Origin: Haplodiscus bocki
Taxonomy: Eukaryota
Reading direction: 5' to 3'
DNA length: 64,000 bases
NCBI GenBank assembly: GCA_965655095.1
Contig: OZ296652.1
Location: forward strand, 57,784,001-57,848,000
Each line of letters begins with the position of its first letter. Within the stretch, counting starts at the first letter, position 1. The notes under the pieces were generated by a model. The model saw nothing but the letters and a program-made list of their open reading frames with translations, did no database searches and had not been told where the DNA came from. Shown here one piece after another: positions 29,019-57,700 of the stretch. Made by a program: the position numbers and the translations under genes.

Positions 29019-29587
29019 CTGTGCAACGCAACGACCAGCATGCACCAAATGCATTTCAAATACTATTCTGACAATATACTGGCGACTTTACTCAAGTTAT
29101 AATACGTTGCATATTTAAACAGATTAGGTTCATGGACAACTTTCTCTTAATATATACCCAAAACGAAGTCCATTCGGACTCCTCTAATGATAAAAGTCAA
29201 ACACAGAGGCGAAGCTGCGCTTTGCAACACTTTCGCCTAAAAACACTACGGCATAAATCAAACAAGTATATCTAACCTTTGAAGGGGACAAGTTACTACG
29301 AAAACTGCTTGAACCATTCAATAGAAATTTAATAACTCAGTCAATTCTTGTAAACTTACATACAAGTACACCCAGTTCATTTTATAAGCAACTTTATATC
29401 AGGTAGGGGTTAAACAGTGCCAGCAAATTGCTCAGAAAAATGCAAATCTAGGCAAATTTGTTGCTTACGAATGGCTTAGAATTTCATAAAATCTAGGCTA
29501 CGTTGCTTATTTTCAAGAAAAAAAAAATTCGTCAAAGCCTGTGATATTGCACTTGCTTGCGGAAGTGTAAAGCCCAGAAATTCAAAC

Positions 29588-34262: not shown

Positions 34263-34629
34263 AGGGCACTACTTTGTGTCGAAAACATTTTTACTGCGGT
34301 ATGTATGATCTTCGAAGTTAGATTTTCTTCGCGTAACACATCTATCTTCACCTAACAATTTCCAAAGAAGCATATGCATGGCAGCTTCATATCCTTGGCA
34401 TGTCAAAACTTTTACGGAGCAGATTTTTAGAAGGCATTAATTGGAATTTTTGGGGCCAAAATTGGGTCGATTATACAGTTGGAGTACTTTGTCATAAAAT
34501 CCGGTACCCTCAGTGCGCGCCATCATAATCACAGTACCAAAAATTTCTGAGGCTTCTTGAGAACGCAACGCTCGGCCTCCCTGACACACCAACTAATCGA
34601 CGGAATATGGAGAATGTATTGAAACTGAC

Positions 34630-34995
34630 CTTCAAAACTGTCGTCACTAACAGCACCTGAAGATATTTCCATGGAAGATATTGCACCTTTGGTAGTCACA
34701 GTAAAGTTATCCAGCAGTTTTTCAGGTGACTGAGGAACACCTTGAGAGCCATCTAACTCCTGTCTAACTTCGTCCAACAGAGAAGCAAGCTGTTTATTAA
34801 TCTCGGCAAAAGATGGTCTATCTCTAGGCAGCCATTGCCAACATCGTTTCATTAAAGCGTAGAGGGCTTTGGGACATTCTGGAGGTTGGTTCAACCGACT
34901 ACCCTGTTGAAGGTATTCGTAAAGGCTGCACAGTTCAATTCCAGGGTATGGAGACATGCCACCAGAAGCTATTTCCCAGAGTAGAACACCGAAGG
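34630..34995 (-). CDS. abl: Abl-family kinase exon encoding the kinase C-lobe (subdomains IX-XI)
   Basis: (A)[65 protein letters not shown] closely matches ABL1 [21 protein letters not shown]...CP..[19 protein letters not shown]. Acceptor ttcaag|CC splits the Ala codon after DVW, as I recall for vertebrate ABL1. Donor GAAG|gtcagt; 366 bp. Confidence 0.9.
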
Positions 34996-37313: not shown

Positions 37314-37319
37314 CACGTG
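37314..37319. other. 6-bp target-site duplication CACGTG (partner at 54765-54770)
   Basis: tct-CACGTG-AGTAGT ... ACTACT-CACGTG-gat. Six bp is the Polinton integrase TSD length. The hexamer is self-complementary, so it formally cannot be distinguished from a 6-bp extension of the inverted repeat. Confidence 0.8.
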
Positions 37320-37370
37320 AGTAGTTATATAAGTCGCATATGGGATACTCGCAGAGCGCACCCCCCTACC

Positions 37371-37765
37371 CTTCATCGTATTTGGGATATGCTCAACAGC
37401 GCACCCATACCCAGTATCGTATTTGAGATATGTTCAACAGCACACCCATACCCAGTATCGTATTTGGGATATGTTCAATAGCTCACCCATACCCAGTATC
37501 GTATTTGAGATATGTTCAACAGCGCACCCATACCCAGTATCGTATTTGGGATATGCTCAACAGCGCACCCATACCCAGTATCGTATTTGAGATATGTTCA
37601 ACAGCGCACCCATACCCAGTATCGTATTTGAGATATATTCAACAGCGCAACCATACCCAGTATCGTATTTGAGATATATTCAACAGCGCAACCATACCCA
37701 GTATCGTATTTGGGATATGTTCAACAGCACACCCATACCCATCATCTTATTTGGGATATGTTAAA
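37371..37765 (+). repeat. Left subterminal 41-bp minisatellite (~9.5 copies)
   Basis: Unit cagtatcgtatttg(g/a)gatatgttcaacagcgcacccatacc at 37371, 37412, 37453...37699, partial at 37740. Confidence 0.95.
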
Positions 37766-37806
37766 TGGACTTGCTCAGATTTTGTAATGAACTTCAAAAT
37801 AAAAAA

Positions 37807-40800
37807 TTAATTCCAAGGTATACTTTTAATATTATCTAAATAATTCCTTTTATCATCGAAAATACTCAAAGTCGTCTTTTTAATTCCTTGCATATACATA
37901 TCATGACTAATTGATTTTAAAATATAATTAACACATTCATTTTCTAATTCTTCAACATCTAAACAGATTTTATATTCCTCGAATTTAAAATTTTTTGATT
38001 GACTTTAAGATATACCTTTTAGTTTATTCTTATCTTCTTCCTTATCTTTACACTTAAAAGCATACATTTTACTTCTTAATGCTATGAATTCATCTATAAA
38101 TATATTTTTAGGTGTTTCTATTTTAAATTTTCCAAATACTTTTTTATTCTTTTCACTATATAACTCATGGTTTTCATCTATATTACTAAAATCAATTATA
38201 TCTTCTAAATTTTTCAAGTCTTTAATTATTTTTTCTGATTTTATACTCAATACAAAACTATCACAGTCTATATAATGTAATTGTAAATTTTCCTGACCAA
38301 AGTATGGTTGTAATGTATCATAATATGTTTCATACATATGTAATTTACTCAATTCTAATATAGCAAATCCTAAATATATAGGCTTATCCATTAATATTTC
38401 ATGTTCTTTTTCAAGATAACTATCACAATTACCAAAACTTTTACATATACCATTAAATGTTAATTTTCTTTGCCATCTTAAAAATTTTATTATAATTATC
38501 CCTTTTAATGATCTCTATTTTACATCTGTTCCTAAAATTTTCCGTAGTTTTACCGTAAAAAGCATTATTTAATAATTTATAGAAGTCTTTTTCAAAATCG
38601 TTTACTGCTTGATTTCTTTTTTGTGTAATAAAATCAATATATTTTTCTAACCATTTATTTTGTTTAAAGGATATTACTCTATGAACTTGTTTAATTTTCA
38701 TACCATGCCTAACATAAAATTTTAACATTCTATAATGAATTAAATAATTTCTCTTATCAGTCCAATCGCAAATTAATTTTTTATGAGATACATAATTTTT
38801 AGGCATCATTGATTTTATATATGGACCAAAATCATTTTTAGATATAGTTTTATTTTCAGGACAGAATGGAAAATACTTACTTTTTTGCCTTATACTATAA
38901 GGATATTCAAGATCGACTTCTAAAAAGTAACCAAAATCGTTATCATCTGGAGTATTTAATATTTCTTCTAAACAAACATTATCTGTTTCAAATTTAATAT
39001 TATCATAAGGTAAAAGTTGACTCATACCAAAACCATATAAATTATTAGCATCTACATATAATATATTTGTATTTTCATCTGATTTTACATACCTATCTCC
39101 CATAACACCAGATATACCACCTCTTATACCATTTTCTAATAATAAAATCATTTCTTTATCTTGTAGTGTTTGTAATTTGATATTTGTATATTTTAAACCA
39201 CAAGCCCAAGTATAACCAGGTAAGCTAACAAAATACAATGGACTTATTCCAAATTCATTTTGTGATACTTTTATAAATTTTTCAAAAACACATGCTAATA
39301 AAACATCACTTTTACAATATAATTCTGTTAATTCTTTACCATCTTTAATTTTGAATTTTTTAATAATTTCTCTTGTTCTATCAATTTCTTTATCATCGGG
39401 GCATTTATTTTTTAATTTACTAAAAAAATCTTTATTTTCTAAATTTTCTAAATTATTAACAGGTTTGTTATAATCTTCGATACTATTAAAATATTCATAA
39501 GGATATGCTAATTTTTTAGTTAAATACCTCCACTTATCAGGAAATTCTGTTTTTAATATTTTAAGGTCGTTTTCTCCTATATAATCTAAAAATGCTTCTT
39601 CTAATTCATTAATTTTATCAGGATATTTTTTCTTTAAATCACCAATAGATTTATTTCTTTTGGTTTTATCAATCATGTTTTCTAATTCATTAATGATATC
39701 TAATATTTTATCATCTCCAATAACTTCTTTTTTCAAGTTTTTAAGTGTTTTATGGCTGTTATCAACTAATGTTTTAACTAATTTACCTAAACTACTTGAT
39801 AAGAATCTATATGTATCTATAAACCTAATACATCCATATTTAACTGAAATATATTTTTCGTCTGTTTTAGGAATTATCTCAAATTTTACATTATCTTTTT
39901 TTCTATCAACTAATGTTTTAAAGAACATATGACAATCATAGTTACTAAAATTATGTAGACCAATTGTTATGAAATTACTATCTTTTTGCTTAACTTGTAA
40001 ATTACATTCATTATGAGCCGGTCCTCTATAATTACCTGTTAAATGACAATGATCCCTAACTTTATCTGTTTCAATATATTTTTCACAATATCGACAAATA
40101 TTATCATTTTCAAAGTCTTGTTTATTTTCTTCTGTCATAATGATATCTTTGTTAGTATTTTTAAACCAAAAGTTCATTTTATTTTTTTCTAATTTAATAA
40201 TTTCATCTACAAACCAATTAATATTTTCATAACCTAAAGGAGATTTATGATAATCACTTTTCAAAATATGATCTAAATCTGATACAATTTGTTATCCATT
40301 ACATACTGGTTCTTGTTTATAAATATTAGTTGTTTTGTCTCCAATATTAGTAATTTCTTTTTTATTATCAGCTTCAAAATCCGCATATATTCTAAAATAT
40401 AATTTATTCTTCTGAAAATATTTCTTCCAATATATATGTGAGTTAGGGGAAGTTTTTAATTGTTGATTTTCTTGACATAATTTTTTATGTTTAACTAACA
40501 TACTATTAGTTGTATATGAATTTAAGCACTTTCTACAGACATATTTACAATCATGTTTTCCTATAAAGACATTTGATTTTTTAATGAGAACATAATGATT
40601 TTTATAAATTAATAAATCAATGACTTTATCTGATTCATTTTTACTTATCTCAATAGGGATTAATTTATGTTTATTTTGATCGAAACCTAATTCATATATG
40701 TTTATTGATAAGTTGTTTAATTTCTCAAATCTATACATATCACTGCATTTGAAACCATTAGTAAAATCAAAACCTTCTATGTTTAATTCGTTAAAATATT

Positions 40801-41887
40801 TTCTATAACTTGATACTATATTAGAATTATTTTCACAAGGATGTAGTTTAGCTAAAATTGACCACAAGAAACAATATTTATCATCGTTTTTAATATTTAA
40901 TATAGCAGAAGATCTTAATGGTATTTCAATATAACTAGAACCATCCATATTACCAGTATTATAGAAAGATATTGTCATTGAATTAACTCTTTGAAAAACC
41001 CATCCTGATTCTCTCATCTCTAAACTTTGTTTCCTAGCTTCTAAATCCCATTGAATATTAACATTATCTATCTCAGATTGAGTTAAATTAGTAATCATAC
41101 TTGAATTGATAGACATTTCTGCTTCCCTTCTAATATCACCATCTTCTTCAAATTTATAAAATAATAACATAAAGGATAATTGATATTTAAACTTATACTG
41201 TTTTATAAATTTAGCATATATATGACTCATTTCTTCAAATATCTTGTCAATATAATACACTTCTATTCCAGTATTATCAAATTTTGATGTAATTGTTAAT
41301 TGTAAATTCAAATCTTTCTTATGGTGTCTATCTACAGAAATATCATATATTTTATTTAATATATCATCTGAAAATTTATATTTGATTTTGTTATTTTTTT
41401 AAATATTTTTGTTCTTATTTTCATCTTTATTAATTTTTGTTCTAGGTTTAGGTTGAATTTGCTTTTTTTCTAAATGTCTTTTTGATTTTATATGCCTACT
41501 ATAACTGGCTCTATGAATATTTATTCCACAATCTTCACATCTTTTAATATTATTTTGTGCCATATTTTCTACATCTGTTTTAATTTTCTCTATTCTTAAT
41601 AATATATTATCTTTCAAGCTTTTAAATTCTACTATTCTATTATTTAACATAATTGTATCATTTTTATAGTGACTAATATCATTTCGTATCTCAGATATTC
41701 TCAAGGAAAGATCATTATATTTTTTATTTTTCTTTTTTCTATTACGAATAGCTCTCTTAATGGTTTTAATTTCTTTATACAATTCAATAATTTTGTCTTC
41801 CTTTGATTTTATATTTTTATTTACTTTCTTAATATCTCCATCCATCTTTACTTTTTGATCTAAAAGTTTATTTAATATCTGACTCAT
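37807..41887 (-). pseudogene. polB: Protein-primed family-B DNA polymerase (pPolB), left-arm copy; ancestral ORF ~1,350 aa
   Basis: ORFs 41399-41887, 40292-41311 and 38453-40264 are in frame across TAA stops. There is a frameshift near 38485 and a stop at 38005. Motifs: ExoI ADFEA, endonuclease-VII-like CRYC...DHCHLTGNYRGPAHNECN, ExoII HNFSNYD, ExoIII YCKSDV, Pol A YVDANNLYG, Pol B KLLNNAFYGK, Pol C YIDCDS. Confidence 0.92.
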
Positions 41888-41957
41888 TTATAATATATAA
41901 ATTTATTCAATTAATTTAATGTGGATAAAAGAATTCAATAATTTCATGTTTAAATAA

Positions 41958-42257
41958 ATGAATGAACAAAACCAAATAATTAAAAATTGTCGTGTTTGTG
42001 GTTATGAAAGAGAGTATGATAACTATCACAGATTATATGTTGCTTGTAAAAAATGCTCTAGTAAACGATGTGCAAAATATTATCAGAAAAACAGAGAAAA
42101 ATTATTAGAAAAATCTAGACTTTATCGAGAAAACAATAAAGATAAACTTAAACGGAATAGAAAAACTATTGATACACACACAGAAGATATACAGAATCTT
42201 TACAATCAGGCTAATATGTTAACAGAGATGATAAAAACAACAGTTTCAGTATCTTAA
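41958..42257 (+). CDS. 99-aa CxxC..CxxC zinc-ribbon protein with basic helical tail
   Basis: CRVC...CKKCSSKRCAKYYQKNREKLLEKSRLYRENNK. Intact here; the mirror copy has a nonsense change. Confidence 0.7.
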   Translation: MNEQNQIIKNCRVCGYEREYDNYHRLYVACKKCSSKRCAKYYQKNREKLLEKSRLYRENNKDKLKRNRKTIDTHTEDIQNLYNQANMLTEMIKTTVSVS

Positions 42258-42313
42258 TTAAATACATATATTTATACTCATATTCAAATATAAGAGAACA
42301 ATTGTATTTGTAA

Positions 42314-42859
42314 TTATGTATATAATTTATAACAAAAGTATCTAGTAACAGGATTAGTATTTTTACATTTTTGTATTCGATTTAAATCTAGACAATTATA
42401 TTCACATGCTAAATGTTTAAAATTATCAAAATTTTTATCTATCTGTTGTAAAATTTTAGTAGCTATCATAGGTTTTGGTATATGTTTTTTATAAAATATT
42501 GGATGAAAATCTTTAATAGAGTTATATGTAGTTATAGTTAATATATTGATTTTATGAAAATTATAACCATTATATTCTAATTCTTTTATTTTTCTATGAT
42601 TTTTAACTTGGGGAGGTAAATATATACTAAAATTATTTTCCCAAATTTTATTATTTTTTTCATTTTTAAAAGATATTTCATATTCACATTCAGCTGTGTA
42701 ACGAATAAATTTTTCTTGATGTTTTAACAAAATTGTTCTGATTAATTTCTCAGGATACATAGCTCTAATATTATAGAAAGAACCATTTAAGGTAATATTT
42801 TGTAAACTTTCAGGTTCGTTTCTCTGATAAGGTCTTTCATATTCAACTTCTAAACTCAT
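42314..42859 (-). CDS. 181-aa hypothetical element protein
   Basis: Open ORF in very AT-rich DNA starting at ataaATG; mirrored at 48990-49535. Confidence 0.7.
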   Translation of the reverse strand: MSLEVEYERPYQRNEPESLQNITLNGSFYNIRAMYPEKLIRTILLKHQEKFIRYTAECEYEISFKNEKNNKIWENNFSIYLPPQVKNHRKIKELEYNGYNFHKINILTITTYNSIKDFHPIFYKKHIPKPMIATKILQQIDKNFDNFKHLACEYNCLDLNRIQKCKNTNPVTRYFCYKLYT

Positions 42860-42911
42860 TTATATATTTCATATTTGTTTTCAATATTGAAATAAGTTTT
42901 CTATTTTTCAA

Positions 42912-43619
42912 ATGACTACTATAATGAAACAAGTAACATGTTCACTATGTAATATAAAAATCGATGAATTAGAATGGATGTATCATATATTTTCGGAAAA
43001 TCATTTACAACTTTGTGAAAACGATAAAGAAAAAGTTGCAATAAAGTTTTTCGAAATGATTTTTGATACATATTCCAAGCAAAGTGAAATATATAATTTG
43101 AAAATTAAAAAGACACTTGATTTAAGGCAATCATATTTTGCAACAAAACTACCAAAAGAGAAATTTAATCTATTATGTAGTGAATCAACTTATAAATCAG
43201 AATTAGAAGACAGTCTCACTCAAGATTTACTGAATTTCACACAGAATGCTATACACGATATTGGAAAATCATACTTCAAATCACTGGATAAGATAACATA
43301 TTGTAAACTTTGTAGTATCGAAATAAATAAATCACTTCTTTTTGATCATATTATTTCAAAAGAACACAGAGACATTGAAGATTATTTTATAATGAAATGT
43401 ATGACTTATTGTGAACGTTGTGATAAAGAAATAAAAAACGATGAATGGAGAGAGCATATATGTTCAGAAAAACATTTAGTAAAGACTAATAGTTTTGACA
43501 AATATTGTGAAGTTTGTAAAATAAGTTATTCTATTCATATGGATAACGAAGCTCACAAACACATAGAAACTGATTTTCATAAGAGAAACCTATTTAGATC
43601 ACGTTATATTTTTAAATAG
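42912..43619 (+). CDS. 235-aa protein with four U1/matrin-like C2H2 zinc fingers
   Basis: CSLC..HIFSENH, CKLC..HIISKEH, CERC..HICSEKH, CEVC..HIETDFH; intact in both arms. Confidence 0.8.
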   Translation: MTTIMKQVTCSLCNIKIDELEWMYHIFSENHLQLCENDKEKVAIKFFEMIFDTYSKQSEIYNLKIKKTLDLRQSYFATKLPKEKFNLLCSESTYKSELEDSLTQDLLNFTQNAIHDIGKSYFKSLDKITYCKLCSIEINKSLLFDHIISKEHRDIEDYFIMKCMTYCERCDKEIKNDEWREHICSEKHLVKTNSFDKYCEVCKISYSIHMDNEAHKHIETDFHKRNLFRSRYIFK

Positions 43620-43674
43620 ATTTTTATAGTTGTTAAATCAGAAAAATTATAATTATAATTACTTTTGCATATAA

Positions 43675-44133
43675 ATGAATAAAAGATTTTCATATGATAA
43701 TATGATTAAATCACGATCGATAGAACCATCTGACATAATTAGGACATTTAAACTAGATCGATGTTGTGATTTTATGGAAGAAAAATACAATATTCCTAGA
43801 TTAACTCAAAAAGAAATTTGTAATCGATTACAATTTACTGATAGAACTATTAGACGATACAGAGATGATATTAAAATGGATAGTCCTTATAGAATAAATA
43901 ATAACAAAAAGAAAAAGCCTAAACAACCATCAGATACTAAAACAGTTCCAAATAAGAGATCTAAAAACAATGTTATAAAAGTTGGTAATATTTCTGATAC
44001 TCACACAATATCTGGTAGAGAATTAATTGATCAAGCTTTTCAGAATGATAGAACAAACGCTATTTTAGAAAACAAACCAGAAGAAAATAAAAAGCTTATT
44101 ACTATAGCTAGAAGAATCATCGATAACAAATAA
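43675..44133 (+). CDS. 152-aa helix-turn-helix DNA-binding protein
   Basis: LTQKEICNRLQFTDRTIRRYRDDI is an HTH pattern, followed by a basic KKKKPK NLS-like stretch; intact in both arms. Confidence 0.75.
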   Translation: MNKRFSYDNMIKSRSIEPSDIIRTFKLDRCCDFMEEKYNIPRLTQKEICNRLQFTDRTIRRYRDDIKMDSPYRINNNKKKKPKQPSDTKTVPNKRSKNNVIKVGNISDTHTISGRELIDQAFQNDRTNAILENKPEENKKLITIARRIIDNK

Positions 44134-44161
44134 AGAACATATATGAGTTTCTTATTATTAA

Positions 44162-44557
44162 ATGGATGAAATAGAACAAGCGATAAGACAGGACGAAGAT
44201 ACAGTGATAGATGTTGCTGAAAAATTAAAACTTGTATCAAATACTAATATGGTTACAAAAGAAGAACTTTTACAGAAATTTATAGCTGAAAATGTTATAA
44301 AAAACAAAATGATTAATATTGCTGGTCAAATGTTTATAGAATATGAAAAAGAAATAGATAATTCTAATCAAATAATCAAAGGTTACGAAGATTATATCGG
44401 AGATGATAAAATCAGAAAGGATATATTAGACAAAGTCTGTTCAGATGATATAAAAGAAGATTGTTCTGATAAAGATGAAGTTTACAAAAATAATTCTATT
44501 AATAGATTTATTAAAATTTTAAATAATAATAAACCAGAAATGCTATCAAACAAATAA
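44162..44557 (+). CDS. 131-aa acidic/helical hypothetical element protein
   Basis: Open ORF starting at ttaaATG; mirrored intact at 47301-47693. Confidence 0.7.
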   Translation: MDEIEQAIRQDEDTVIDVAEKLKLVSNTNMVTKEELLQKFIAENVIKNKMINIAGQMFIEYEKEIDNSNQIIKGYEDYIGDDKIRKDILDKVCSDDIKEDCSDKDEVYKNNSINRFIKILNNNKPEMLSNK

Positions 44558-44734
44558 TGTTGAAATAATTATCAATAAAATTTTATCAACTTTTTTATGA
44601 ACGAGATATAAATTTTTATAGTATTCTAATTGGTATATTCCTTCGTTTGCAATTTCATTAACTATTTCTGTTTTCATGTATCTATTCTTATAATGTGTTT
44701 TACTATCTTTGATTTTTTCAACAATTTAAATAAT

Positions 44735-45301
44735 ATGTCGAAGTACTGCAATAGATGTAAAAGAGATTTAGAGATTGATAATTTCTATTCTTATAAGAAA
44801 AGTATTTGCAAACAATGCGTAAATAAAAAAGTTAAATGTGATTATTGTAACAAGGAATTTAATAGTACTAATTTATCCAAACACATAAAACAAATGCATA
44901 GTACCTACAATAGTACTTACAATAGTACTCACAATAGTACTTACAATAGTACTTACAATAGTACTTACAACAGTACTTACGACGATAGTACTTTTAATAA
45001 GACAGACAAAAATATTATTGTAGATGAAAATAACGATCCTTTATATCCAACAATAGAAGATGGTCTATATCTTAATAAATATAACGAATTAAAGAAAGAC
45101 AAAATATATGATATAAAAACTCGGAATCAAATAAATAGAATTCTTACTAAAAATAGAATATTACATAATAAAATAATGAATAAAATAATAACAACGAGAG
45201 AAGAAATACAATGCGAGAATAATTTAAACAAACTAAAAGATTTAGATTATTTCGATGAAAGAGTTTGTAAAATACTTTTAAAATACAAGTATCTTGATTA
45301 A
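44735..45301 (+). CDS. 188-aa zinc-finger protein with (STYN)n repeat
   Basis: Likely start MSKYCNRC (ATG 44735, rather than TTG 44630). CNRC..CKQC..CDYC..HIKQMH zinc motifs, then seven STY/H units encoded by a 12-bp tandem repeat. Confidence 0.72.
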   Translation: MSKYCNRCKRDLEIDNFYSYKKSICKQCVNKKVKCDYCNKEFNSTNLSKHIKQMHSTYNSTYNSTHNSTYNSTYNSTYNSTYDDSTFNKTDKNIIVDENNDPLYPTIEDGLYLNKYNELKKDKIYDIKTRNQINRILTKNRILHNKIMNKIITTREEIQCENNLNKLKDLDYFDERVCKILLKYKYLD

Positions 45302-45369
45302 ATTTGTGTCTCATATATACTTGTATAAGAGTATGATTTTTCTATTGTACTCGTATATATGTACTTATA

Positions 45370-46066
45370 TTTGATCGAACAAGATATTTGTATAAAGTAT
45401 TTTGATCGAACAAGATTTTTGTATAAAGTATTTTGATCGAACAAGATATTTCTATTGTACTCATATATATGTAATTATATTTAGTATATATACTTGTATA
45501 AGAGTATGATATTTGTATAAAGTATTTAATCGATCAAGATTTATGTATAAAGTATTTGATCGAACAAGATATTTGTATAAAGTATTTTGATCGAACAAGA
45601 TGTTACTATTTTACTCATATATATGTAAGTGTATTTAGTATATATACTTGTATAAGAGTACGATATTTGTATAAAGTATTTGATCGAACAAGATTTTTGT
45701 ATAAAGTATTTGATCGAACAAGATTTATGTATAAAGTATTTTGATCGAACAAGATTTATGTATAAAGTATTTTGATCGAACAAGATATTACTATTATACT
45801 CATTTATATGTAATTATATTTAGTATATATACTTGTATAAGAGTACGATATTTGTATAAAGTATTTGATCGAACAAGATTTATGTATAAAGTATTTGATC
45901 GAACAAGATATTTCTATAAAGTATTTTGATCGAACAAGATTTATGTATAAAGTATTTTGATCGAACAAGATTTATGTATAAAGTATTTTGATCGAACAAG
46001 ATTATGTTAAAAGTAATATGATCGAACAAGATTATGTAAAAAATATTATGATCGAACAAGATTATT
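45370..46066 (+). repeat. Left-arm central 30/31-bp repeat array (~17 gatcgaacaag cores) with interspersed AT-rich higher-order inserts
   Basis: Unit gtataaagtatt(t)tgatcgaacaagat(a/t)t(t/a)t, interrupted three times by an 'actcatatatatgtaa...tatatacttgtataagagta' block. Confidence 0.92.
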
Positions 46067-46346
46067 CCAAAACAGATAATTATAATTAAAATTACATAAA
46101 TTGTTACATGAGCTCAAATTTCCGACACTGCGCCGACACAGAATAAACGAATAATTGTATATACTTTTTTTGCATTATAACACTTATATAATTTCACGGT
46201 GTGCGCCGACACAGAATAAACGAATAATTGTATATATTTTTTTTGTATTATAACACTTATATAATTTCATGGTGTCCGCCCATGTCCGAAATATAAGCTC
46301 ATGTAACAATTTATGTAATTTTAATTATAATTATCTGTTTTGGAAT
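46064..46346. other. Palindrome axis: perfect inverted repeat to 46114/46296, imperfect to ~46127/46283, enclosing 2 x 73-bp direct repeats
   Basis: attccaaaacagataattataattaaaattacataaattgttacatgagct ... agctcatgtaacaatttatgtaattttaattataattatctgttttggaat. Spacer units tgcgccgacacagaataaacg...atttcacggtg start at 46129 and 46202, with a third partial (tccgcc) at 46275. Confidence 0.9.
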
Positions 46347-46487
46347 AATCTTGTTCGATCATAATACTTTTAACATAATCTTGTTCGATCATAATACTTT
46401 TAACATAATCTTGTTCGATCAAAATACTTTATACATAAATCTTGTTCGATCAAATACTTTATACAAATATCTTGTTCGATCAAATAT
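46345..46487 (-). repeat. Right-arm central 30/31-bp repeat array (5 cores)
   Basis: cttgttcgatc at ~46350, 46380, 46410, 46441, 46471. Confidence 0.9.
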
Positions 46488-46552
46488 AAGTACATATATA
46501 CGAGTACAATAGAAAAATCATACTCTTATACAAGTATATATGAGACACAAAT

Positions 46553-47119
46553 TTAATCAAGATACTTGTATTTTAAAAGTATTTTACAAACTCTTTCATC
46601 GAAATAATCTAAATCTTTTAGTTTGTTTAAATTATTCTCGTATTGTATTTCTTCTCTCGTTGTTATTATTTTATTCATTATTTTATTATGTAATATTCTA
46701 TTTTTAGTAAGAATTCTATTTATTTGATTCCGAGTTTTTATATCATATATTTTATCTTTCTTTAATTCGTTATATTTATTAAGATATAGACCATCTTCTA
46801 TTGTTGGATATAAAGGATTGTTATTTTCATCTACAATATTATTTTTGTCGGTCTTATTAAAAGTACTATCGTCGTAAGTACTGTTGTAAGTACTATTGTA
46901 AGTACTATTGTAAGTACTATTGTGAGTACTATTGTAAGTACTATTGTAAGTACTATGCATTTGTTTTATGTGTTTGGATAAATTAGTACTATTAAATTCC
47001 TTGTTACAATAATCACATTTAACTTTTTTATTTACGCATTGTTTGCAAATACTTTTCTTATAAGAATAGAAATTATCAATCTCTAAATCTCTTTTACATC
47101 TATTGCAGTACTTCAACAT
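46553..47119 (-). CDS. 188-aa ZnF/(STYN)n protein, right-arm copy
   Basis: Mirror of 44735-45301, few substitutions, intact. Confidence 0.72.
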   Translation of the reverse strand: MLKYCNRCKRDLEIDNFYSYKKSICKQCVNKKVKCDYCNKEFNSTNLSKHIKQMHSTYNSTYNSTHNSTYNSTYNSTYNSTYDDSTFNKTDKNNIVDENNNPLYPTIEDGLYLNKYNELKKDKIYDIKTRNQINRILTKNRILHNKIMNKIITTREEIQYENNLNKLKDLDYFDERVCKILLKYKYLD

Positions 47120-47300
47120 ATTATTTAAATTGTTGAAAAAATCAAAGATAGTAAAACACATTATAAGAATAGATAAATGAAAACAGAAATAGTTAATAAA
47201 ATTGCAAACGAAGGAATATACCAATTAGAATACTATAAAAATTTATATCTCGTTCATAAAAAAATTAATAAAATTTTATTGATAATTAATTCAACATTAT

Positions 47301-47693
47301 TTATTTGTTTGATAGCATTTCTCGTTTATTATTTAAAATTTTAATAAATCTATTAATAGAATTATTTTTATAAACTTCATCTTTATCAGAACAATCTTCT
47401 TTTATATCATCTGAACAGACTTTGTCTAATATATCCTTTCTGATTTTATCATCTCCGATATAATCTTCGTAACCTTCGATTATTTGATTAGAATTATCTA
47501 TTTCTTTTTCATATTCTATAAACATTTGACCAGCAACATTAATCATTTTGTTTTTTATAACATCTTTAGCTATAAATTTCTGTAAAGGTTCTTCTTTTGT
47601 AACCATATTAGTATTTGATACAAGTTTTAATTTTTCAGCAACATCTATCAGTGTATCTTCGTCCTGTCTTATCGCTTGTTCTATTTTATCCAT
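47301..47693 (-). CDS. 130-aa hypothetical protein, right-arm copy
   Basis: Mirror of 44162-44557. Confidence 0.7.
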   Translation of the reverse strand: MDKIEQAIRQDEDTLIDVAEKLKLVSNTNMVTKEEPLQKFIAKDVIKNKMINVAGQMFIEYEKEIDNSNQIIEGYEDYIGDDKIRKDILDKVCSDDIKEDCSDKDEVYKNNSINRFIKILNNKREMLSNK

Positions 47694-47718
47694 TTAATAA
47701 TAAACTCATATATGTTCT

Positions 47719-48174
47719 TTATTTGTTATCGATCATTCTTCTAGCTATAGTAATAAGCTTTTTATTATCTTCTGGTTTGTTTTCTAAAATAGCGTTTGTT
47801 CTATCATTCTGAAAAGCTTGATCAATTAATTCTCTACCAGATATTGTGTGAGTATCAGAAATATTACCACCTTTTATAACATTGTTTTTAGATCTCTTAT
47901 TTGGAACTGTTTTAGTATCTGATGGTTGTTTAGGCTTTTTTTTGTTATTATTTATTCTATAAGGACTATCCATTTTAATATCATCTCTGTATCGTCTAAC
48001 AGTTCTATCAGTAAATTGTAATCGATTACAAATTTCCTTTTGAGTTAATCTAGGATAATTGTATTTTTCTTCCATAAAATCACAACATCGATCTAGTTTA
48101 AATGTCCTAATTATGTCAGATGGTTCTATCGATCGTGATTGAATCATACTATCATAAGAAAATCTTTTATTCAT
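47719..48174 (-). CDS. 151-aa HTH protein, right-arm copy
   Basis: Mirror of 43675-44133. Confidence 0.75.
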   Translation of the reverse strand: MNKRFSYDSMIQSRSIEPSDIIRTFKLDRCCDFMEEKYNYPRLTQKEICNRLQFTDRTVRRYRDDIKMDSPYRINNNKKKPKQPSDTKTVPNKRSKNNVIKGGNISDTHTISGRELIDQAFQNDRTNAILENKPEDNKKLITIARRMIDNK

Positions 48175-48229
48175 TTATATACAAAAGTACTTATAATTAT
48201 AAATTTTCTGATTTAACAACTATAAAAAT

Positions 48230-48937
48230 CTATTTAAAAATATAACGTGATCTAAATAGGTTTCTCTTATGAAAATCAGTTTCTATGTGTTTGTGAGCTT
48301 TGTTATCCATATGAATAGAATAACTTATTTTACAAACTTCACAATATTTGTCAAAACTATTAGTCTTTACTAAGTGTTTTTCTGAACATATATGCTCCCT
48401 CCATTCATCGTTTTTTATTTCTTTATCACAACGTTCACAATAAGTCATACATTTCATTATAAAATAATCTTCAATGTCTCTGTGTTCTTTTGAAATAATA
48501 TAATCAAAAAGAAGTGATTTATTTATTTCGATACTACAAAGTTTACAATATGTTATCTTATCCAGTGATTTGAAGTATGAATTTCCAATATCGTGTATAG
48601 CATTCTGTGTGAAATTCAGTAAATCTTGAGTGAGACTGTCTTCTAATTCTGATTTATAAGTTGATTCACTACAAAACATATTAAATTTCTCTTTTGGTAG
48701 TTTTGTTGCAAAATATGATTGCCAGAAATCAAGTGTCTTTTTAATTTTCAAATTATATATTTGACTTTGCTTGGAATATGTATCAAAAATCATTTCGAAA
48801 AACTTTATTGCAACTTTTTCTTTATCGTTTTCACAAAGTTGTAAATGATTTTCCGAAAGTATATGATACATCCATTCTAATTCATCCATTTTTATATTAC
48901 ATAGTGAACATGTTACTTGTTTCATTATAGTAGTCAT
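48230..48937 (-). CDS. 235-aa multi-C2H2 zinc-finger protein, right-arm copy
   Basis: Mirror of 42912-43619 (~10 aa differences). Confidence 0.8.
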   Translation of the reverse strand: MTTIMKQVTCSLCNIKMDELEWMYHILSENHLQLCENDKEKVAIKFFEMIFDTYSKQSQIYNLKIKKTLDFWQSYFATKLPKEKFNMFCSESTYKSELEDSLTQDLLNFTQNAIHDIGNSYFKSLDKITYCKLCSIEINKSLLFDYIISKEHRDIEDYFIMKCMTYCERCDKEIKNDEWREHICSEKHLVKTNSFDKYCEVCKISYSIHMDNKAHKHIETDFHKRNLFRSRYIFK

Positions 48938-48989
48938 TTGAAAAATAGAAAACTTATTTCAATATTGAAAACAAATATGAAATATATAA

Positions 48990-49535
48990 ATGAGTTTAGA
49001 AGTTGAATATGAAAGACCTTATCAGAGAAACGAACCTGAAAGTTTACAAAATATTACCTTAAATGGTTCTTTCTATAATATTAGAGCTATGTATCCTGAG
49101 AAATTAATCAGAACAATTTTGTTAAAACATCAAGAAAAATTTATTCGTTACACAGCTGAATGTGAATATGAAATATCTTTTAAAAATGAAAAAAATAATA
49201 AAATTTGGTAAAACAATTTTAGTATATATTTACCTCCCCAAGTTAAAAATCATAGAAAAATAAAAGAATTAGAATATATTGGTTATAAATTTCATAAAAT
49301 CATTATATTAACTATAACTACATATAACTCTATTAAAGATTTTCATCCAATATTTTATAAAAAACATATACCAAAACCTATGATAGCTACTAAAATATTA
49401 CAACAGATAGATAAAAATTTTGATAATTTTAAACATTTAGCATGTGAATATAATTGTCTAGATTTAAATCGAATACAAAAATGTAAAAATACTAATCCTG
49501 TTACTAGATACTTATGTTATAAATTATATACATAA
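48990..49535 (+). pseudogene. 181-aa hypothetical protein, right-arm copy with premature TAA at 49209-49211
   Basis: GAA in the left arm is TAA here; the rest is collinear. Confidence 0.8.
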
Positions 49536-49591
49536 TTACAAATACATTTGTTCTCTTATATTTGAATATGAGTATAAATATATGTATATAA

Positions 49592-49891
49592 TTAAGATAC
49601 TGAAACTGTTGTTTTTATCATCTCTGTTAACATATTAACCTGATTGTAAAGATTCTGTATATCTTCTGTGTGTTTATCAATAGTTTTTCTATTCCGTTTA
49701 AGTTTATCTTTATTGTTTTCTCAATAAAGTCTAGATTTTTCTAATAATTTTTCTCTGTTTTTCTGATAATATTTTGCACATCGTATACTAGAGCATTTTT
49801 TACAAGCAACATATAATCTGTGATAGTTATCATACTCTCTTTCATAACCACAAACACGACAAATTTTAATTATTTGGTTTTGTTCATTCAT
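49592..49891 (-). pseudogene. 99-aa zinc-ribbon protein, right-arm copy with premature stop
   Basis: CTT TAT CGA in the left arm reads CTT TAT TGA here. Confidence 0.8.
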
Positions 49892-49961
49892 TTATTTAAA
49901 CATGAAATTATTGAATTCTTTTATCCGCATTAAATTAATTGAATAAATTTATATATTATAA

Positions 49962-52900
49962 ATGAGTCAGATATTAAATAAACTTTTAGATCAAAAAGTA
50001 AAGATGGATGGAGATATTAAGAAAGTAAATAAAAATATAAAATCAAACGAAGACAAAAATATTGAATTGTATAAAGAAATTAAAACCATTAAGAGAGCTA
50101 TTCGTAATAGAAAAAAGAAAAATAAAAAATATAATGATCTTTCCTTGAGAATATCTGAGATACGAAATGATATTAGTCACTATAAAAATGATACAATTAT
50201 GTTAAATAATAGAATAGTAGAATTTAAAAGCTTGAAAGATAATATATTATTAAGAATAGAGAAAATTAAAACATATGTAGAAAATATGGCACAAAATAAT
50301 ATGAAAAGATGTGAAGATTGTGGAATAAATATTCATAGAGCTAGTTATAGTAGGCATTTAAAATCAAAAAGACATTTAGAAAAAAAGCAAATTAAACCTA
50401 AACCTAAAAAAAATTAATAAAGATGAAAATAAAAACAAAAATATTAAAAAAAAATAACAAAATCAAATATAAATTTTCAGATGATATATTAAATAAAATA
50501 TATGATATTTCTGTAGATAGACACCATAAGAAAGATTTGAATTCACAAATAACAATTACATAAAAATTTGATAATACTGGAATAGAAATGTATTATATTG
50601 ACAAGATATTTAAAGAAATGAGTCATATATATGCTAAATTTATAAAACAGTATAAGTTTAAATATCAATTATCCTTTATGTTATTATTTTATAAATTTGA
50701 AGAAGATGGTGATATTAGAAGGGAAGCAGAAATGTCTACCAATTTAAGTATGATTACTAATTTAACTCAATCTGAGATAGATAATGTTAATATTCAATGG
50801 GATTTAGAAGCTAGGAAACAAAATTTAGAGATGAGAGAATCAGGATGGGTTTTTCAAAGAGTTAATTCAATGACAATATCTTTCTATAATACTGGTAATA
50901 TGGATGGTTCTAGTTATATTAAAATACCATTAAGATCTTCTGCTATATTAAATATTAAAAACGATGATAAATATTGTTTCTTGTGGTCAATTTTAGCTAA
51001 ACTACATCCTTCTGAAAATAATTCTAATATAGTATCAAGTTATAGAAAATATTTTAACGAATTAAACATAGAAGGTTTTGATTTTACTAATGGTTTCAAA
51101 TGCAGTGATATGTATAGATTTGAGAAATTAAACAACTTATCAATAAACATATATGAATTAGGTTTCGATCAAAATAAACATAAATTAATCCCTATTGAGA
51201 TAAGTAAAAATGAATCAGATAAAGTCATTGATTTATTAATTTATAAAAATCATTATGTTCTCATTAAAAAATCAAATGTCTTTATAGGAAAACATGATTG
51301 TAAATATGTCAGTAGAAAGTGCTTAAATTCATATACAACTAATAGTATGTTAGTTAAACATAAAAAATTATGTCAAGAAAATCAACAATTAAAAACTTCT
51401 CCTAACTCACATATATATTGGAAGAAATATTTTCAGAAGAATAAATTAAATTTTAGAATACATGCGGATTTTGAAGCTGATAATAAAAAAGAAAATACTA
51501 ATATTGGAGACAAAACAACTAATATTTTTAAACAAGAACCAGTATGTAATGGATAACAAATTGTATCAGATTTAGATCATATTTTAAAAAGTGATTATCA
51601 TAAATCTCCTTTAGGTTATGAAAATATTAATTGGTTTGTAGATGAAATTATTAAATTAGAAAATAAAATGAACTTTTGGTTTAAAAATACTAACAAAGAT
51701 ATCATTATGACAGAAGAAAATAAACAAGACTTTGAAAATGATAATATTTGTCGATATTGTGAAAAATATATTGAAACAGATAAAGTTAGGGATCATTGTC
51801 ATTTAACAGGTAATTATAGAGGACCGGCTCATAATGAATGTAATTTACAAGTTAAGCAAAAAGATAGTAATTTCATAACAATTGGTCTACATAATTTTAG
51901 TAACTATGATTGTCATATGTTCTTTAAAACATTAGTTGATAGAAAAAAAGATAATGTAAAATTTGAGATAATTCCTAAAACAGACGAAAAATATATTTCA
52001 GTTAAATATGGATGTATTAGGTTTATAGATACATATAGATTCTTATCAAGTAGTTTAGGTAAATTAGTTAAAACATTAGTTGATAACAGCCATAAAACAC
52101 TTAAAAACTTGAAAAAAGAAGTTATTGGAGATGATAAAATATTAGATATCATTAATGAATTAGAAAACATGATTGATAAAACCAAAAGAAAAAAATCTAT
52201 TAGTGATTTAAAGAAAAAATATCCTGATAAAATTAATGAATTAGAAGAAGCATTTTTAGATTATATAGGAGAAAACGACCTTAAAATATTAAAAACAGAA
52301 TTTCCTGATAAGTGGAGGTATTTAAATAAAAAATTAGCATATCCTTATGAATAGTTTAATAGTATCGAAGATTATAACAAACCTGTTAATAATTTAGAAA
52401 ATAAAGATTTCTTTAGTAAATTAAAAAATAAATGCCCCGATGATAAAAAAATTGATAGAACAAGAGAAATTATTAAAAAATTCAATATTAAAGATGGTAA
52501 AGAATTAACAGAATTATATTGTAAAAATGATGTTTTATTATTAGCATGTGTTTTTGAAAAAATTATAAAAGTATCAAAAAATGAATTTGGAATAAGTCCA
52601 TTGTATTTTGTTAGCTTACCTGGTTATACTTGGGCTTGTGGTTTAAAATATACAAATATCAAATTACAAACACTACAAGATAAAGAAATGATTTTATTAA
52701 TAGAAAATGGTATAAGAGGTGGTATATCTGGTGTTATGGGAGATAGGTATGTAAAATCAGATGAAAATACAAATATATTATATGTAGATGCTAATAATTC
52801 ATATGGTTTTGGTATGAGTCAACCTTTACCTTATGATAATATTAAATTTGAAACAGATAATGTTTGTTTAGAAGAAATTTTAAATACTCCAGATGATAAC

Positions 52901-54031
52901 GATATTGGTTACTTTTTAGAAGTCGATCTTGAATATCCTTATAGTATAAGGCAAAAAACTACGTATTTTCCATTCTGTCCTGAAAATAAAACTAAATCTA
53001 AAAATGATTTTGGTCCATATATAAAATCAATAATGCCTAAAAATTATGTATCTCAGAAAAAATTAATTTGTGATTGGACTGATAAGAGAAATTATTTAAT
53101 TCATTATAGAATGTTAAAATTTTATGTTAGGCATGGTATGAAAATTAAACAAGTTCATAGAGTAATATCCTTTAAACAAAATAAATGGTTAGAAAAATAT
53201 ATTGATTTTAATACACAAAAAAGAAATCAAGCAGTAAACGATTTTGAAAAAGACTTCTAAAAATTATTAAATAATGCTTTTTACGGTAAAACTATGGAAA
53301 ATGTTAGGAACAGATGTAAAATAGAGATCATTAAAAGGGATAATTATAATAAAATTTTAAGATGGCAAAGAAAATTAACATTAAATGGTAAATGTAAAAG
53401 TTTTGGTAATTGTGATAGTTATATTGAAAAAGAACATGAAATATTAATGGATAAGCCTATATATTTAGGATTTGCTATATTAGAATTGAGTAAATTACAA
53501 ATGTATGAAACATATTATGATACATTACAACCATACTTTGGTCAGGAAAATTTACAATTACATTATATAGAGTGTGATAGTTTTGTATTAAGTATAAAAT
53601 CAGAAAAAATAATTAAAGACTTGAAAAATTTAGAAGATATATTTGATTTGAGTAATATAGATGAAAACCATGAGTTATAGAGTGAAAAGAATAAAAAAGT
53701 ATCAGGAAAATTTAAAATAGAAACACCTAAAAAAATATTTATAGATGAATTCATAGCATTAAGAAGTAAAATGTATGCTTTTAAGTGTAAAGATAAGGAA
53801 GAAGATAAGAAAAAACTAAAAGGTATATCTAAAAGTCAATCAAAAAATATTAAATTCGAGGAATATAAAATATGTTTAGATGGTGAAGAATTAGAAAATG
53901 AATGTGTTAATTATATTTTAAAATCAATTAATCATGATATGTATATGCAAGGAAGTAAAAAGACGACTTTGAGTATTTTCGATGATAAAAGTAATTATTT
54001 AGATAATATTAAAAGTATACCTTGGAATTAA
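49962..54031 (+). pseudogene. polB: pPolB, right-arm copy
   Basis: Mirror of 37807-41887. A-run indels near 50410/50450, stops at ~50560, 51554, 52352, 53258, 53678. Motif A YVDANNSYG, motif C YIECDS. Confidence 0.92.
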
Positions 54032-54072
54032 TTTTTTATTTTGAAGTTCATTACAAAATCTGAGCAAGTCCA

Positions 54073-54713
54073 TTTAACATATCCCAAATAAGATGATGGG
54101 TATGGGTGTGCTGTTGAACATATCCCAAATACGATACTGGGTATGGTTGCGCTGTTGAATATATCTCAAATACGATATTGGGTATGGTTGCGCTGTTGAA
54201 TATATCTCAAATACGATACTGGGTATGGGTGCGCTGTTGAACATATCTCAAATACGATACTGGGTATGGGTGCGCTGTTGAGCATATCCCAAATACGATA
54301 CTGGGTATGGGTGCGCTGTTGAACATATCTCAAATACGATACTGGGTATGGGTGAGCTATTGAACATATCCCAAATACGATACTGGGTATGGGTGCGCTG
54401 TTGAACATATCTCAAATACGATACTGGGTATGGGTGCGCTGTTGAGCATATCCCAAATACGATACTGGGTATGGGTGCGCTGTTGAACATATCTCAAATA
54501 CGATACTGGGTATGGGTGAGCTATTGAACATATCCCAAATACGATACTGGGTATGGGTGCGCTGTTGAACATATCTCAAATACGATACTGGGTATGGGTG
54601 AGCTATTGAACATATCCCAAATACGATACTGGGTATGGGTGCGCTGTTGAACATATCTCAAATACGATACTGGGTATGGGTGCGCTGTTGAGCATATCCC
54701 AAATACGATGAAG
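54073..54713 (-). repeat. Right subterminal 41-bp minisatellite (~15.5 copies)
   Basis: Reverse complement of the left array, about 246 bp (6 units) longer, with alternating g/a variants giving an 82-bp dimer. Confidence 0.95.
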
Positions 54714-57700
54714 GGTAGGGGGGTGCGCTCTGCGCCTATCCCATATGCGACTTATATAACTACTCACGTGGATAGTACGAAAAAGACCTTGTGGTTCCTC
54801 CAGATTTTCTCTGACTCGCGCTCTGAAGGAAACACTAGATGACTACAACCCAACCAAACGACTTCGAGAAAAACATCTGAATACTGACGCAAGTACAAAA
54901 AATCTGAATTTCAGAAGACAAGTGAAAAAAATGTCACACAAGAGAATCCAAATCCTCGAGAAATGTCTTTTTCCAGACTTTCCATTGTGTGAAAGTTTTG
55001 AAATGAGCCCTAGATGACTTCAATCAGAATATTAGTCTGAGAAAAACAACTTAAAAGAGAGAGGCGAGGCTTAACTTCCAAACACAGTCGGACTTGTCAG
55101 TTGAAATCAAAGATAAGGTTCACCGAGTAAGTTCTGAGAGACATATGCACTTTGACCGCACACAAGATTGAGAAATTGAAAGCTTGTATAAAAAGGAGAT
55201 GTCTGGTCGATCACAGATTCCTCACCCCAGTTTTCGAATGAGTGCTTGAAAACTGCAATCCAACCGGTAACCCTCCAAAAAAAATTGAGAACTCGAATTT
55301 TGTTTTTTTTTTGTTTCAGACTGGAAGTCGAAATTCTCGTCCAGGTGACCACAGATAACCCATTTTCTACAGGTTCTTCTTTCCGTTGTGGACTATGAAA
55401 CAGCGCTATATAACTGCAACCAAACGAGTTGTTTTGGAGAAAAAATTGAAAACAGAACGAAGTAAAGCCGATTTGAAAGTAACAAGTCAAAACATTTCGG
55501 TGTAAAGAATAAAGCTCAAGAAAGGGGACAAGCTTGTTTTGTCAAGATCAATTGATATTGCGCGGGTTTTAGCCAGCACTGGACGGCCATAATCCATCTT
55601 TAGAAAATCAACCTTGGAAAAGTCTCGAAAATTTCAAGCTTCAAAGAAAATCAAACTACAAGTCCGCACTGTCGAATAAACAATTTAATTCGCCCAGGGT
55701 GGAGCCAATATCTTGGCTTGGGAATGCAATGGACACCTCACGTAAAGCTGAGAAAATGTGGATTCGAACGGAGGTGAAATGGACTTCGAGTTTTAGACTG
55801 GAATGTTCCATGAGCCACAGATTGAGAGTGACTCTACGGCACATTTACCTGTCCTCGCGAGAGAGTATCTGCTCCTTTGTATGTGTTGCTGGATATTTCC
55901 AGAGAAACTCTGAGAGAAAACAGCCTGTTCCAGCAGTTTTTTTGGGGGATTTCCAAAGCTATGGCGCGCACACTCCCTCTGAGGTAGTGTCATTCATACA
56001 ATCAGGCGTTTCTGTTTTCAGACTTTTTCATAGGTAAAAGTGACGGCTCTATTGTTGGTGCCATGCTTTACACACCACTGAGCGGACACACTCGCAGACA
56101 AAAGGAAACATAGGACGTTCTATGACCATCACATGCACAGAAGAGTAACCGATTTCGAGTTGCCATTGTGTCGTAACGAGAAGTTCCAACATTATCTAAC
56201 GGACACGCTGTTGAATATTGTTTTGCATAAAACTGTAGTAAACTTTTTTTTAAAAAAAGAGCCATAGATATCACCAGTGGGAAACGATTGCGCTGCTGAA
56301 AAACCGAGAAGAATGTTTCATAAAGCTGAATGTGAGGAAATCGTGATGGCGTTGGACGTCCTGCTGTAGAGGCAATCGGCCTTGTCACTGACGTGTTGGC
56401 CAGAGTAGACATACTGCAGATAAAACGAGGCTGACATGTCTTCTGGACGCACTCTCATACTTGCCATTGGCGACACCAATCAACTGACTGCACAGGTTTC
56501 TTCCGGAGTTCAACATTACTCTTAACTTCCAAAAAGCAATTGAATTATTTGACACAATGGTCGCCCACTTGGACAGACACCCTCAGACGAAATGTCACAG
56601 AAGCCTGTTTCAGAAAACGAAATTGATTTTAGAGTCCCTGCTCTTTCTGGCAAAAGTCGATTAAGATTAAAGCCCGACTGGAGTTACTATCAAGACTCAA
56701 GAACACTGGAGAAACTCTGCAAAAGGGAAGTGGAGAGTGGGGCTGTCCATGTATTCCGGTGGCAAATCGTGTCTTCAGGTGTTCCAACGATGACTTTTGA
56801 GTCTGAGGACGAAATGTGCCAAAATCATCCATCGACAAAGTCGCCAGTTAACAACGATGGAGTCAACTTCTTTGACAGAAAATGCAAAGAGCCTCGCAAG
56901 GTGGTAGTCCAAAAAAGTGCAAGCTCAGACCGAAGGTCAACATAAAAGAAGTCACAGGGGCAGGTGTGCATTCTAGCTGAAAAGACGCATCGTGACGGTG
57001 GGTCGTTATTTCATTATGTTGCTCCCTCCGTGGACTCTCGTCTCTGCTGGACGATAAACTACTTACTGAAGGAATGTTCAGGCAGTGGCGCAAGAAACTC
57101 ATGTCGAAACACACAATATACTCGGTTTCATTGAGAACAACATCGTTACGCACAAGACAGGACTATTTACAAATTCCGTTGCTTCAACGCGCCACAAATT
57201 GATGGGTAACACATTTGCGAAAAATGCGCAGCAAGTATCAATTACAGAAGAGAGATATAATTGTGGATTGCATCTCAGGCATACCTCAAGGTCAGAAGAA
57301 TCAACGAATTGGACAAGGTGTATTTCGTTCGAGACAAATAAGTAAACTTTTAGAGATATTGTTTTTCCAGTAGCATTGAAAGATAAAGTCGCAATCGGTG
57401 TTTGCGGTTACCGTATATTTCTTCTACAGGGCTGAAACAAAAGAAGCCATACGTACCATTATGACCACCACGCGCCGACAACTGCAGGCTGAAAATCGTT
57501 TAGGCTGCTCTAACGAATGGGATTAGCAGCGGAAGCGAGAGTACCACGTCCCTCAAGCTGCCAAAATGTTTGTTTATCTGATAGTTAGCTCGAATAGAAT
57601 CAACTTTGACACCAGCTACGCTGGGGCAACAGAACAGAACTTGTTGGAGCAACGTCGGACAAACAACTCTGGAGCTCTGGATGACGTCTCTAACTAGATC

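Follow-up and report, generated by a model that had tools for sequence, protein, structure and literature searches.

A Stop Codon Common to the Two Arms of a Palindromic Polinton-like Element in the Genome of Haplodiscus bocki

Introduction

Polintons terminate in AG...CT and are flanked by target-site duplications (TSDs) of 6 bp. Non-autonomous Polintons, which keep both ends, are missing the structural genes and need a helper, are known as well, and the snap-back genomes found among viruses are hairpin-like. The set of genes assigned to Polintons comprises polymerase, integrase, ATPase and capsid genes (PMC4028283, PMC6431247). One preprint describes terminal palindromes and second replicases, not palindromes extending over the whole element (bioRxiv 10.64898/2026.10.13.758929), and a figure legend of another preprint restates fold-back replication of Polintons as a proposed model (bioRxiv 10.64898/2026.07.28.741278).

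The window analysed here is a stretch of 64,000 nucleotides of the Haplodiscus bocki genome (contig OZ296652.1, positions 57,784,001 to 57,848,000), which contains a palindromic Polinton-like element with a polymerase (pPolB) pseudogene in each arm. The original prediction pointed out an in-frame TAA common to both pPolB copies and supposed that the polymerase had been interrupted before the palindrome formed or integrated, naming arm-to-arm gene conversion and programmed readthrough as alternatives. The shared TAA is an ordinary mutation that is private to this insertion, and the interesting part is the palindromic family to which the element belongs.

Architecture of the Element

The features of the element are listed in Table 1. 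Its arms, of approximately 8.1-8.6 kb, are 1.8% different (134 differences over 7546 core sites), and the GC content is about 22% inside the element and about 40% outside. In each arm, pPolB reads outwards and is accompanied by five small ORFs, which showed weak zinc-finger and HTH matches below the Pfam cut-offs and, in a general Pfam scan, no match to an adenovirus-like cysteine protease. The region of the 242-aa zinc-finger-like ORF (48230-48958 and 42891-43619) is missing or unalignable at most other family loci, which means that the small-gene cargo varies. The TSDs of the window element and of the locus L106/L087 (GACGTC) are palindromic hexamers, and the other TSDs are not.

Table 1. 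Positions of the predicted features of the palindromic element within the window
Feature	Position	Strand	Remarks
Whole palindromic Polinton-like element	37320..54764		17,445 bp; AGTAGT...ACTACT ends
Target-site duplication, left copy	37314..37319		CACGTG, 6 bp
Target-site duplication, right copy	54765..54770		CACGTG, 6 bp
Subterminal 41-bp tandem array, left	37375..37762		9.5 copies
Subterminal 41-bp tandem array, right	54076..54709		15.5 copies
Left pPolB pseudogene	37810..41887	-	Broken at 41399, 40292, ~38484, 38005
Right pPolB pseudogene	49962..54031	+	Broken at ~50408-50446 (frameshift), 50561, 51554, 52352, 53258, 53678
Left-arm small ORFs	42314..45301	-, then +	181 aa on -; then 242, 152, 131 and 223 aa on +
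Right-arm mirror small ORFs	46553..49535		181-aa ORF shortened
Central ~30-bp satellite	45368..46063		Expanded on the left side
Symmetry axis	46061..46345		Imperfect inner palindrome, 155-nt spacer with two 73-bp direct repeats
Shared TAA, left arm	40292-40294	-	In frame, left pPolB
Shared TAA, right arm	51554-51556	+	Nearest arm differences 51528, 51586
Left-arm-only lesions	41399-41401; near 38484; 38005-38007	-	Stop; 1-bp frameshift; stop
Right-arm-only stops	~50561, 52352, 53258, 53678	+
Low-divergence tract, upstream of TAA	51021..51290	+	Candidate recent conversion
Low-divergence tract, downstream of TAA	51676..52164	+	Starts ~105 nt past TAA

The motifs DFE, YCKxD, YVDANxxY, KLxxNxxYGK and YxxCDS of protein-primed family-B polymerases are present in the element polymerase together with a weak endonuclease VII match. 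The window's own polymerase pieces gave no match to PF03175, a domain carried by relatives with 57-70% identity. Uninterrupted relatives, 1356 aa long, exist at 87-89% identity, and a search of solved structures with a full-length relative returned no significant match. A 1537-aa relative (P0072, cluster of 136 sequences) possesses, beside PF03175, PF14890 and PF05204, which are intein and homing-endonuclease families.

None of the 10 element ORFs scanned had a Pfam match to an rve integrase, and a tblastn search with a canonical integrase of the same genome found no match in the window or in 37 family-locus stretches. Neither an A32/FtsK-like packaging ATPase nor a double jelly-roll (DJR) capsid protein was matched in the window or at any two-arm locus. 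The sole ATPase/capsid match (L062:1629-4702) consists of decayed canonical Polinton genes that follow immediately after an N gap at the end of a lone family arm, and their linkage to that arm is unproven.

The Palindromic Family

The head-to-head two-arm form was observed at all nine loci first fetched as pairs and at two more. AGTAGT-type ends with a 6-bp TSD of their own were found at seven of the nine other two-arm loci (one TSD being mismatched; the ends of A and F were left out), and the axis is homologous across the family loci. A tree built from 30 arms places the arms of a locus as sisters, with full support, at 12 of 12 two-arm loci. The arm-to-arm divergence amounts to 0.8-3.2%, as against 5.4-13.9% between loci (10 loci). 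All five single-arm chromosomal hits examined adjoin N gaps and a sixth ends with its contig, and two retain the axis; these hits are therefore taken as unassembled palindromes, and the existence of monomeric single-arm elements was rejected. Two of the two-arm loci have an assembly gap at the centre. The palindrome is the standard form of the family and did not originate at the window locus. The family consists of large, fully palindromic Polinton-like elements with two pPolB copies and without integrase or capsid genes.

Several loci depart from the simple two-arm arrangement. The locus at C10:65.82-65.85 Mb (L048-L051) has three arms, with a partial left arm, an inverted copy of the host right flank (3.0 kb, 99% identical to that flank) and a full left arm. 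It is explained either by template switching from arm to arm after the insertion or by an assembly error. The axis is duplicated in the same orientation at C5:77.65-77.68 Mb (L053-L055), where a third partial arm is also present, and at C6:104.947-104.949 Mb (L033-L034). At C3:35078056-35087716, the axis motif is repeated four times in tandem with a spacing of 3.1-3.3 kb.

The scans of viral and metagenome sequences revealed distant relatives only (27-54% identity), and an inverted repeat of at least 100 nt was found at none of the eight long loci checked, out of 83 loci, most of which are cut or partial. A Polinton palindromic over the whole element is undescribed in the literature searched, a scope that ends short of subscription journals, Repbase entries and supplements. 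The palindromic family is a variant of which we found no earlier description, and a prior description may exist.

Canonical Polintons of the Same Genome

The genome contains many A32 ATPase genes (the best 150 of 5172 candidates were scored). All ten ATPase loci followed up belong to elements with terminal inverted repeats (TIRs) of 0.3-2.0 kb and 6-bp TSDs, and in eight of them the AGTAGT ends are similar to the ends of the palindromic family, and the only pPolB is 57-72% identical to the family polymerase. The canonical and the palindromic ends both follow the pattern AGTAGT-N10-GCATATGAC. The one canonical element that was scanned encodes a jelly-roll capsid protein and an rve integrase, and the canonical capsid and integrase queries match 11 of 32 stretches. 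Two ATPase elements (L110/L085 and L108/L099), with AATAATAT ends and TSDs of 6 bp, do not match the family pPolB and represent a second Polinton-like type in this genome. Since the ends and the TSD length are shared, the canonical Polintons seem to be the obvious source of an integrase acting in trans for the palindromic family.

Like Polintons/Mavericks, the palindromic elements have a pPolB-type polymerase, AG...CT ends, a 6-bp TSD and an overall size of 15-20 kb. However, they lack the rve integrase, the A32 ATPase and the DJR capsid, and their inverted repeats, which extend for about 8 kb, include all the genes and meet at a conserved axis, so each element has two polymerase copies, whereas the TIRs of the ten canonical loci are only 0.3-2.0 kb long. 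The element thus resembles a Polinton satellite and is not a complete Polinton; the family is probably a satellite of the canonical Polintons with the same ends. With the non-autonomous Polintons and with snap-back or copy-back genomes, it shares the presence of both ends, the absence of structural genes and the need for a helper. Unlike these, it has a polymerase under purifying selection (ω 0.13) that forms a separate lineage, 57-72% identical to that of the candidate helpers, and one axis conserved across loci. Such features point to a satellite lineage that is stable, as opposed to one that has just arisen by deletion.

The Shared Stop Codon and Other Copies of the Polymerase Gene

The in-frame TAA, with the same sequence context, was confirmed in both pPolB copies of the window. 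It is located about 30 codons downstream of the DFE motif (YADFE in the left arm and HADFE in the right arm). The remaining lesions are indeed arm-specific and lie where they had been reported, apart from one additional right-arm lesion, a frameshift of net one base (Table 1). Each arm thus has a break ahead of the TAA, and translation of neither can now reach it. The arms are 98.2% identical, and 43 base changes in the pPolB region are common to both and absent from the 28 other arms; sharing between arms is not peculiar to the TAA codon.

A DNA search of the 1.5-Gb genome, in which the best 40 of 3963 candidates were scored and 30 fetched (two being the window arms), found a single identical sense codon at the TAA site in all 28 other fetched copies. 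The same is true of all 28 aligned arms, a set that overlaps with the fetched copies. The 26-mer containing the TAA occurs exactly twice in the genome, both times in the window, and a pattern leaving the codon open has 40 genome-wide matches, 38 of them with the sense codon. Three further matches to a looser or shorter TAA pattern have no homology to the family and were rejected as chance matches. Among 120 long polymerase relatives, 98 align gaplessly across the break (the search took long proteins only).

It had been suggested that the stop might be read through in a programmed manner, or that it reflects a natural split of the gene, yielding an N-terminal product and a rarer full-length polymerase. 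The occurrence of the TAA in both arms is the sole support for this idea, and an in-frame stop after which the frame continues is indeed what is seen in viral polymerase genes with programmed readthrough; here, however, the stop is not conserved among the copies and the locus is not under selection, the arm-to-arm ω being 1.37. The alignment of copies offered in the original prediction as a check refutes the idea because the other copies carry the sense codon, and the uninterrupted 1356-aa relatives, the gapless alignments and the lesions lying on both sides of the TAA, including those upstream in both arms, speak against it too. Readthrough can practically be dismissed.

Selection on the Polymerase

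The changes in the polymerase gene fall into three layers; their polarisation was restricted to columns with agreement among almost all of the other arms (the arm of locus I being partial). The changes private to one arm (10 loci) give an ω of 0.99, with 55.5 synonymous and 285.5 nonsynonymous changes; this neutral decay after insertion indicates that the arms were identical when inserted. The changes common to at least two loci give an ω of 0.13 and include no stops among 249, which indicates that the polymerase worked in the mobile lineage. The changes shared by the arms of a single locus are intermediate, with an ω of 0.25-0.26 and 4 stops in 403 (Fisher P 6e-5 versus the multi-locus class); at the window locus, their ω is 0.16 (16 synonymous, 13 nonsynonymous). 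The neutral-type share of the arm-shared single-locus changes, with the mixture solved by hand, is about 37%. Approximately the same share follows from their transition fraction, which at 0.57 is intermediate between 0.42 and 0.66, the two measures being correlated. The shared TAA belongs to this neutral-type part. Of the 12 loci, eight (W, A, B, C, D, G, H and J) have arm-shared lesions, at positions that are all different.

These data bear on the supposition that the polymerase was dead before insertion and that the element was copied in trans. As a statement about a lineage, whether propagated in this way through numerous rounds or mobilised again from a genomic copy that had decayed, it is highly improbable. 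The arm-shared changes at D and G do look neutral (ω 1.29 and 0.58) and include several shared lesions, but the frameshifts of both loci lie within identical runs of 317-464 nt, the ω of the window locus is low, the multi-locus changes are stop-free, and none of the 12 loci shares a lesion common to both arms with another locus (the best 40 or so copies per search were scored). No second insertion carrying the TAA was found. The part of the supposition that may hold is a one-off defective founder, discussed below. Help in trans is needed for integration because the element has no integrase gene, and the extension of this need to the polymerase is not supported.

Probable Gene Conversion between the Arms

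Runs of identity beyond chance, from 351 to 2423 nt, were detected between the arms at 7 of the 10 loci tested; at locus B, the run length is inflated by a misaligned satellite, and the 2.1-kb tract of this locus was also found by a two-state model. The latter is preferred to uniform divergence (2dlnL 141) and describes tracts, about 420 nt long, in which the divergence falls to one tenth of the background. Runs of at least 300 nt contain 10 shared lesions against 5.2 expected (a count that includes one stop of locus H in a shifted frame and two indels of locus J that are perhaps misaligned), 50 shared nonsynonymous changes against 34 and 26 shared synonymous changes against 21.3. When clusters of lesions are counted, with the doubtful cases omitted, five of eight lie within such runs against 2.1 expected (P 0.02). 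The N:S ratios inside and outside the long runs do not differ significantly (Fisher P 0.30-0.61), and the HMM-weighted excess is modest, with a tract posterior summed over 16 lesions of only 9.1 against 6.2 expected. Besides the TAA, the shared lesions outside the tracts are the stops at C and G and the lesion at H near 49950.

A simulation including conversion only, with 1000-nt tracts and one event per kb, reproduced the arm divergence and gave a density of 4.0 shared changes per kb, with long runs covering 18% of the sites, and the observed values are about 4 per kb and 20%; the simulation considers position only, on a grid of 15 points, of which others match one or another target equally well or better. 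More than half of the converted changes in it finish outside long runs. We infer that the low-divergence tracts result from arm-to-arm conversion. Cross-polishing during assembly could also produce identical tracts; the contigs built from raw reads of four runs are 50-75 nt long, represent a high-copy family and have no variants listed.

Shared derived lesions in tracts form the same pattern as in the human Y palindrome P6, where fixation of a derived state in the two arms by conversion is about as frequent as its loss, a deletion of about 1.4 kb being among the fixed changes (PMC8600007). Here, in contrast, the palindromes are mobile-element insertions, many per genome, and each is an independent replicate. 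Dozens of independent 17-20 kb palindromes in this one genome provide a replicated system for conversion rates outside sex chromosomes. A lesion need not predate the insertion because the two arms of a palindrome have it in common, and the divergence of the arms underestimates the age of the insertion.

Origin of the Shared Stop Codon

Arm-to-arm conversion, the second alternative named in the original prediction, is the best supported across the family, but the TAA itself is not within a recent tract. It lies in an identical run of 57 nt between the two tracts, where the posterior of the low-divergence state is 0.06. The arms do not differ in 51660-52191, and the downstream tract has shared changes at otherwise near-invariant codons. 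The stretch 51529-52191, with boundaries chosen post hoc, contains two arm differences and 8 of the 23 main-frame base changes shared by and private to the window arms, a pattern that fits an older and longer tract with the TAA at its edge.

The TAA is private to this locus, the arm differences are neutral, and identical tracts are rich in shared lesions throughout the family. The nonsense change was probably, though by no means certainly, copied from arm to arm by gene conversion. The element would have been inserted with two identical arms and a polymerase gene selected up to then, after which both arms would have decayed neutrally. A nonsense change would have arisen in one arm and been copied to the other by conversion between the inverted arms, 11 kb apart; later mutations would then have re-diverged its neighbourhood, unless the converted tract was short.

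The main rival is the one-off defective founder, in which the nonsense change took place in the last extrachromosomal rounds and was replicated into both arms, the polymerase of a sister genome complementing the defect and the helper integrase integrating the product. The position of the TAA outside the recent tracts agrees with this, and the size of the 57-nt run favours a pre-insertion change with a likelihood ratio of about 2.3 (0.23 versus 0.10, by simulation). The arms were identical at insertion at every locus, so any change in the founder would be common to both; a helper is required for integration anyway, and the genome does contain canonical Polintons whose ends are the same. On the other hand, there are no stops among the 249 multi-locus changes, and the 4 stops in 403 arm-shared changes are close to the prediction for the neutral share from the arm-private rate (10 in 341), with little excess. 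In addition, there is no sibling insertion, the nearest other copy being 92.6% identical. The prior, which weights conversion about fourfold, is a judgement based on the stop-free mobile lineage and on the sufficiency of conversion; combined with the opposing likelihood ratio, it leaves conversion as the fairly probable origin and the founder as possible but clearly less likely. As the TAA lies between the tracts and not inside them, conversion is favoured over the founder but unproven, and for this particular codon it is inferred.

An assembly artefact, in which a genuine stop of one arm was introduced into the other arm during consensus calling or polishing, is very unlikely. These palindromes are hard to assemble, as seen from the N gaps beside the single-arm hits, the two central gaps and the inverted flank copy at one locus; but arm-specific bases persist on both sides of the codon, 26 nt upstream of it and 30 nt downstream, nearer than a read length, and the arm differences are neutral and mostly substitutions.

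That the same nonsense change arose independently in each arm is scarcely credible. Three stop positions do recur between different loci, and 13 of 40 stop-bearing columns share the codon class of the TAA site, which accounts for 71 of 1132 columns. However, these three positions were obtained across 180 cross-locus arm pairs, as against five or six cases in 10 within-locus pairs (10 loci), where about 0.2 would be predicted, and none of the 38 other motif matches has a stop at the site. Sharing within loci far exceeds recurrence between loci, and chance recurrence is a poor explanation.

Proposed Replication of the Palindromic Family

Since the 8-kb arms are identical at each insertion, a replication route copying one arm onto the other is needed. 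The displaced single strand might fold back over its full length. Alternatively, protein-primed synthesis might copy round a unit of half length that is folded shut at the conserved axis. Either route would give a duplex with two identical ends that a Polinton integrase could use.

Tentatively, the family may be regarded as a satellite replicon with a one-arm genome, having a protein-primed outer end and an inner end folded at the axis. It is conceivable that its own pPolB copies round the fold to produce a palindromic duplex with two identical AGTAGT ends, and that this duplex might be accepted by the integrase, and perhaps the capsid, of the canonical Polintons. If so, the integrated palindromes would be snapshots of a fold-back replication intermediate, of the kind that has been proposed for Polintons and of which we found no demonstration in the literature searched. 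A lineage with arms reset at each insertion and a selected polymerase, without integrase or capsid, would support such an intermediate as well as a satellite-helper pair among animal-type Polintons.

Sequences Flanking the Element

A frame on the minus strand at 34529-35107 encodes the C-terminal portion of a tyrosine kinase domain (PF07714, E 1e-21). It lies 2.2 kb to the left of the element, which may have been inserted in or near a host kinase gene. A 660-aa open frame on the minus strand (27073-29055) has no confident Pfam match. Positions 1-20000 of the window are occupied by a tandem array in which a 1.7-kb unit is repeated at least 11 times, most of the copies being 95-100% alike.
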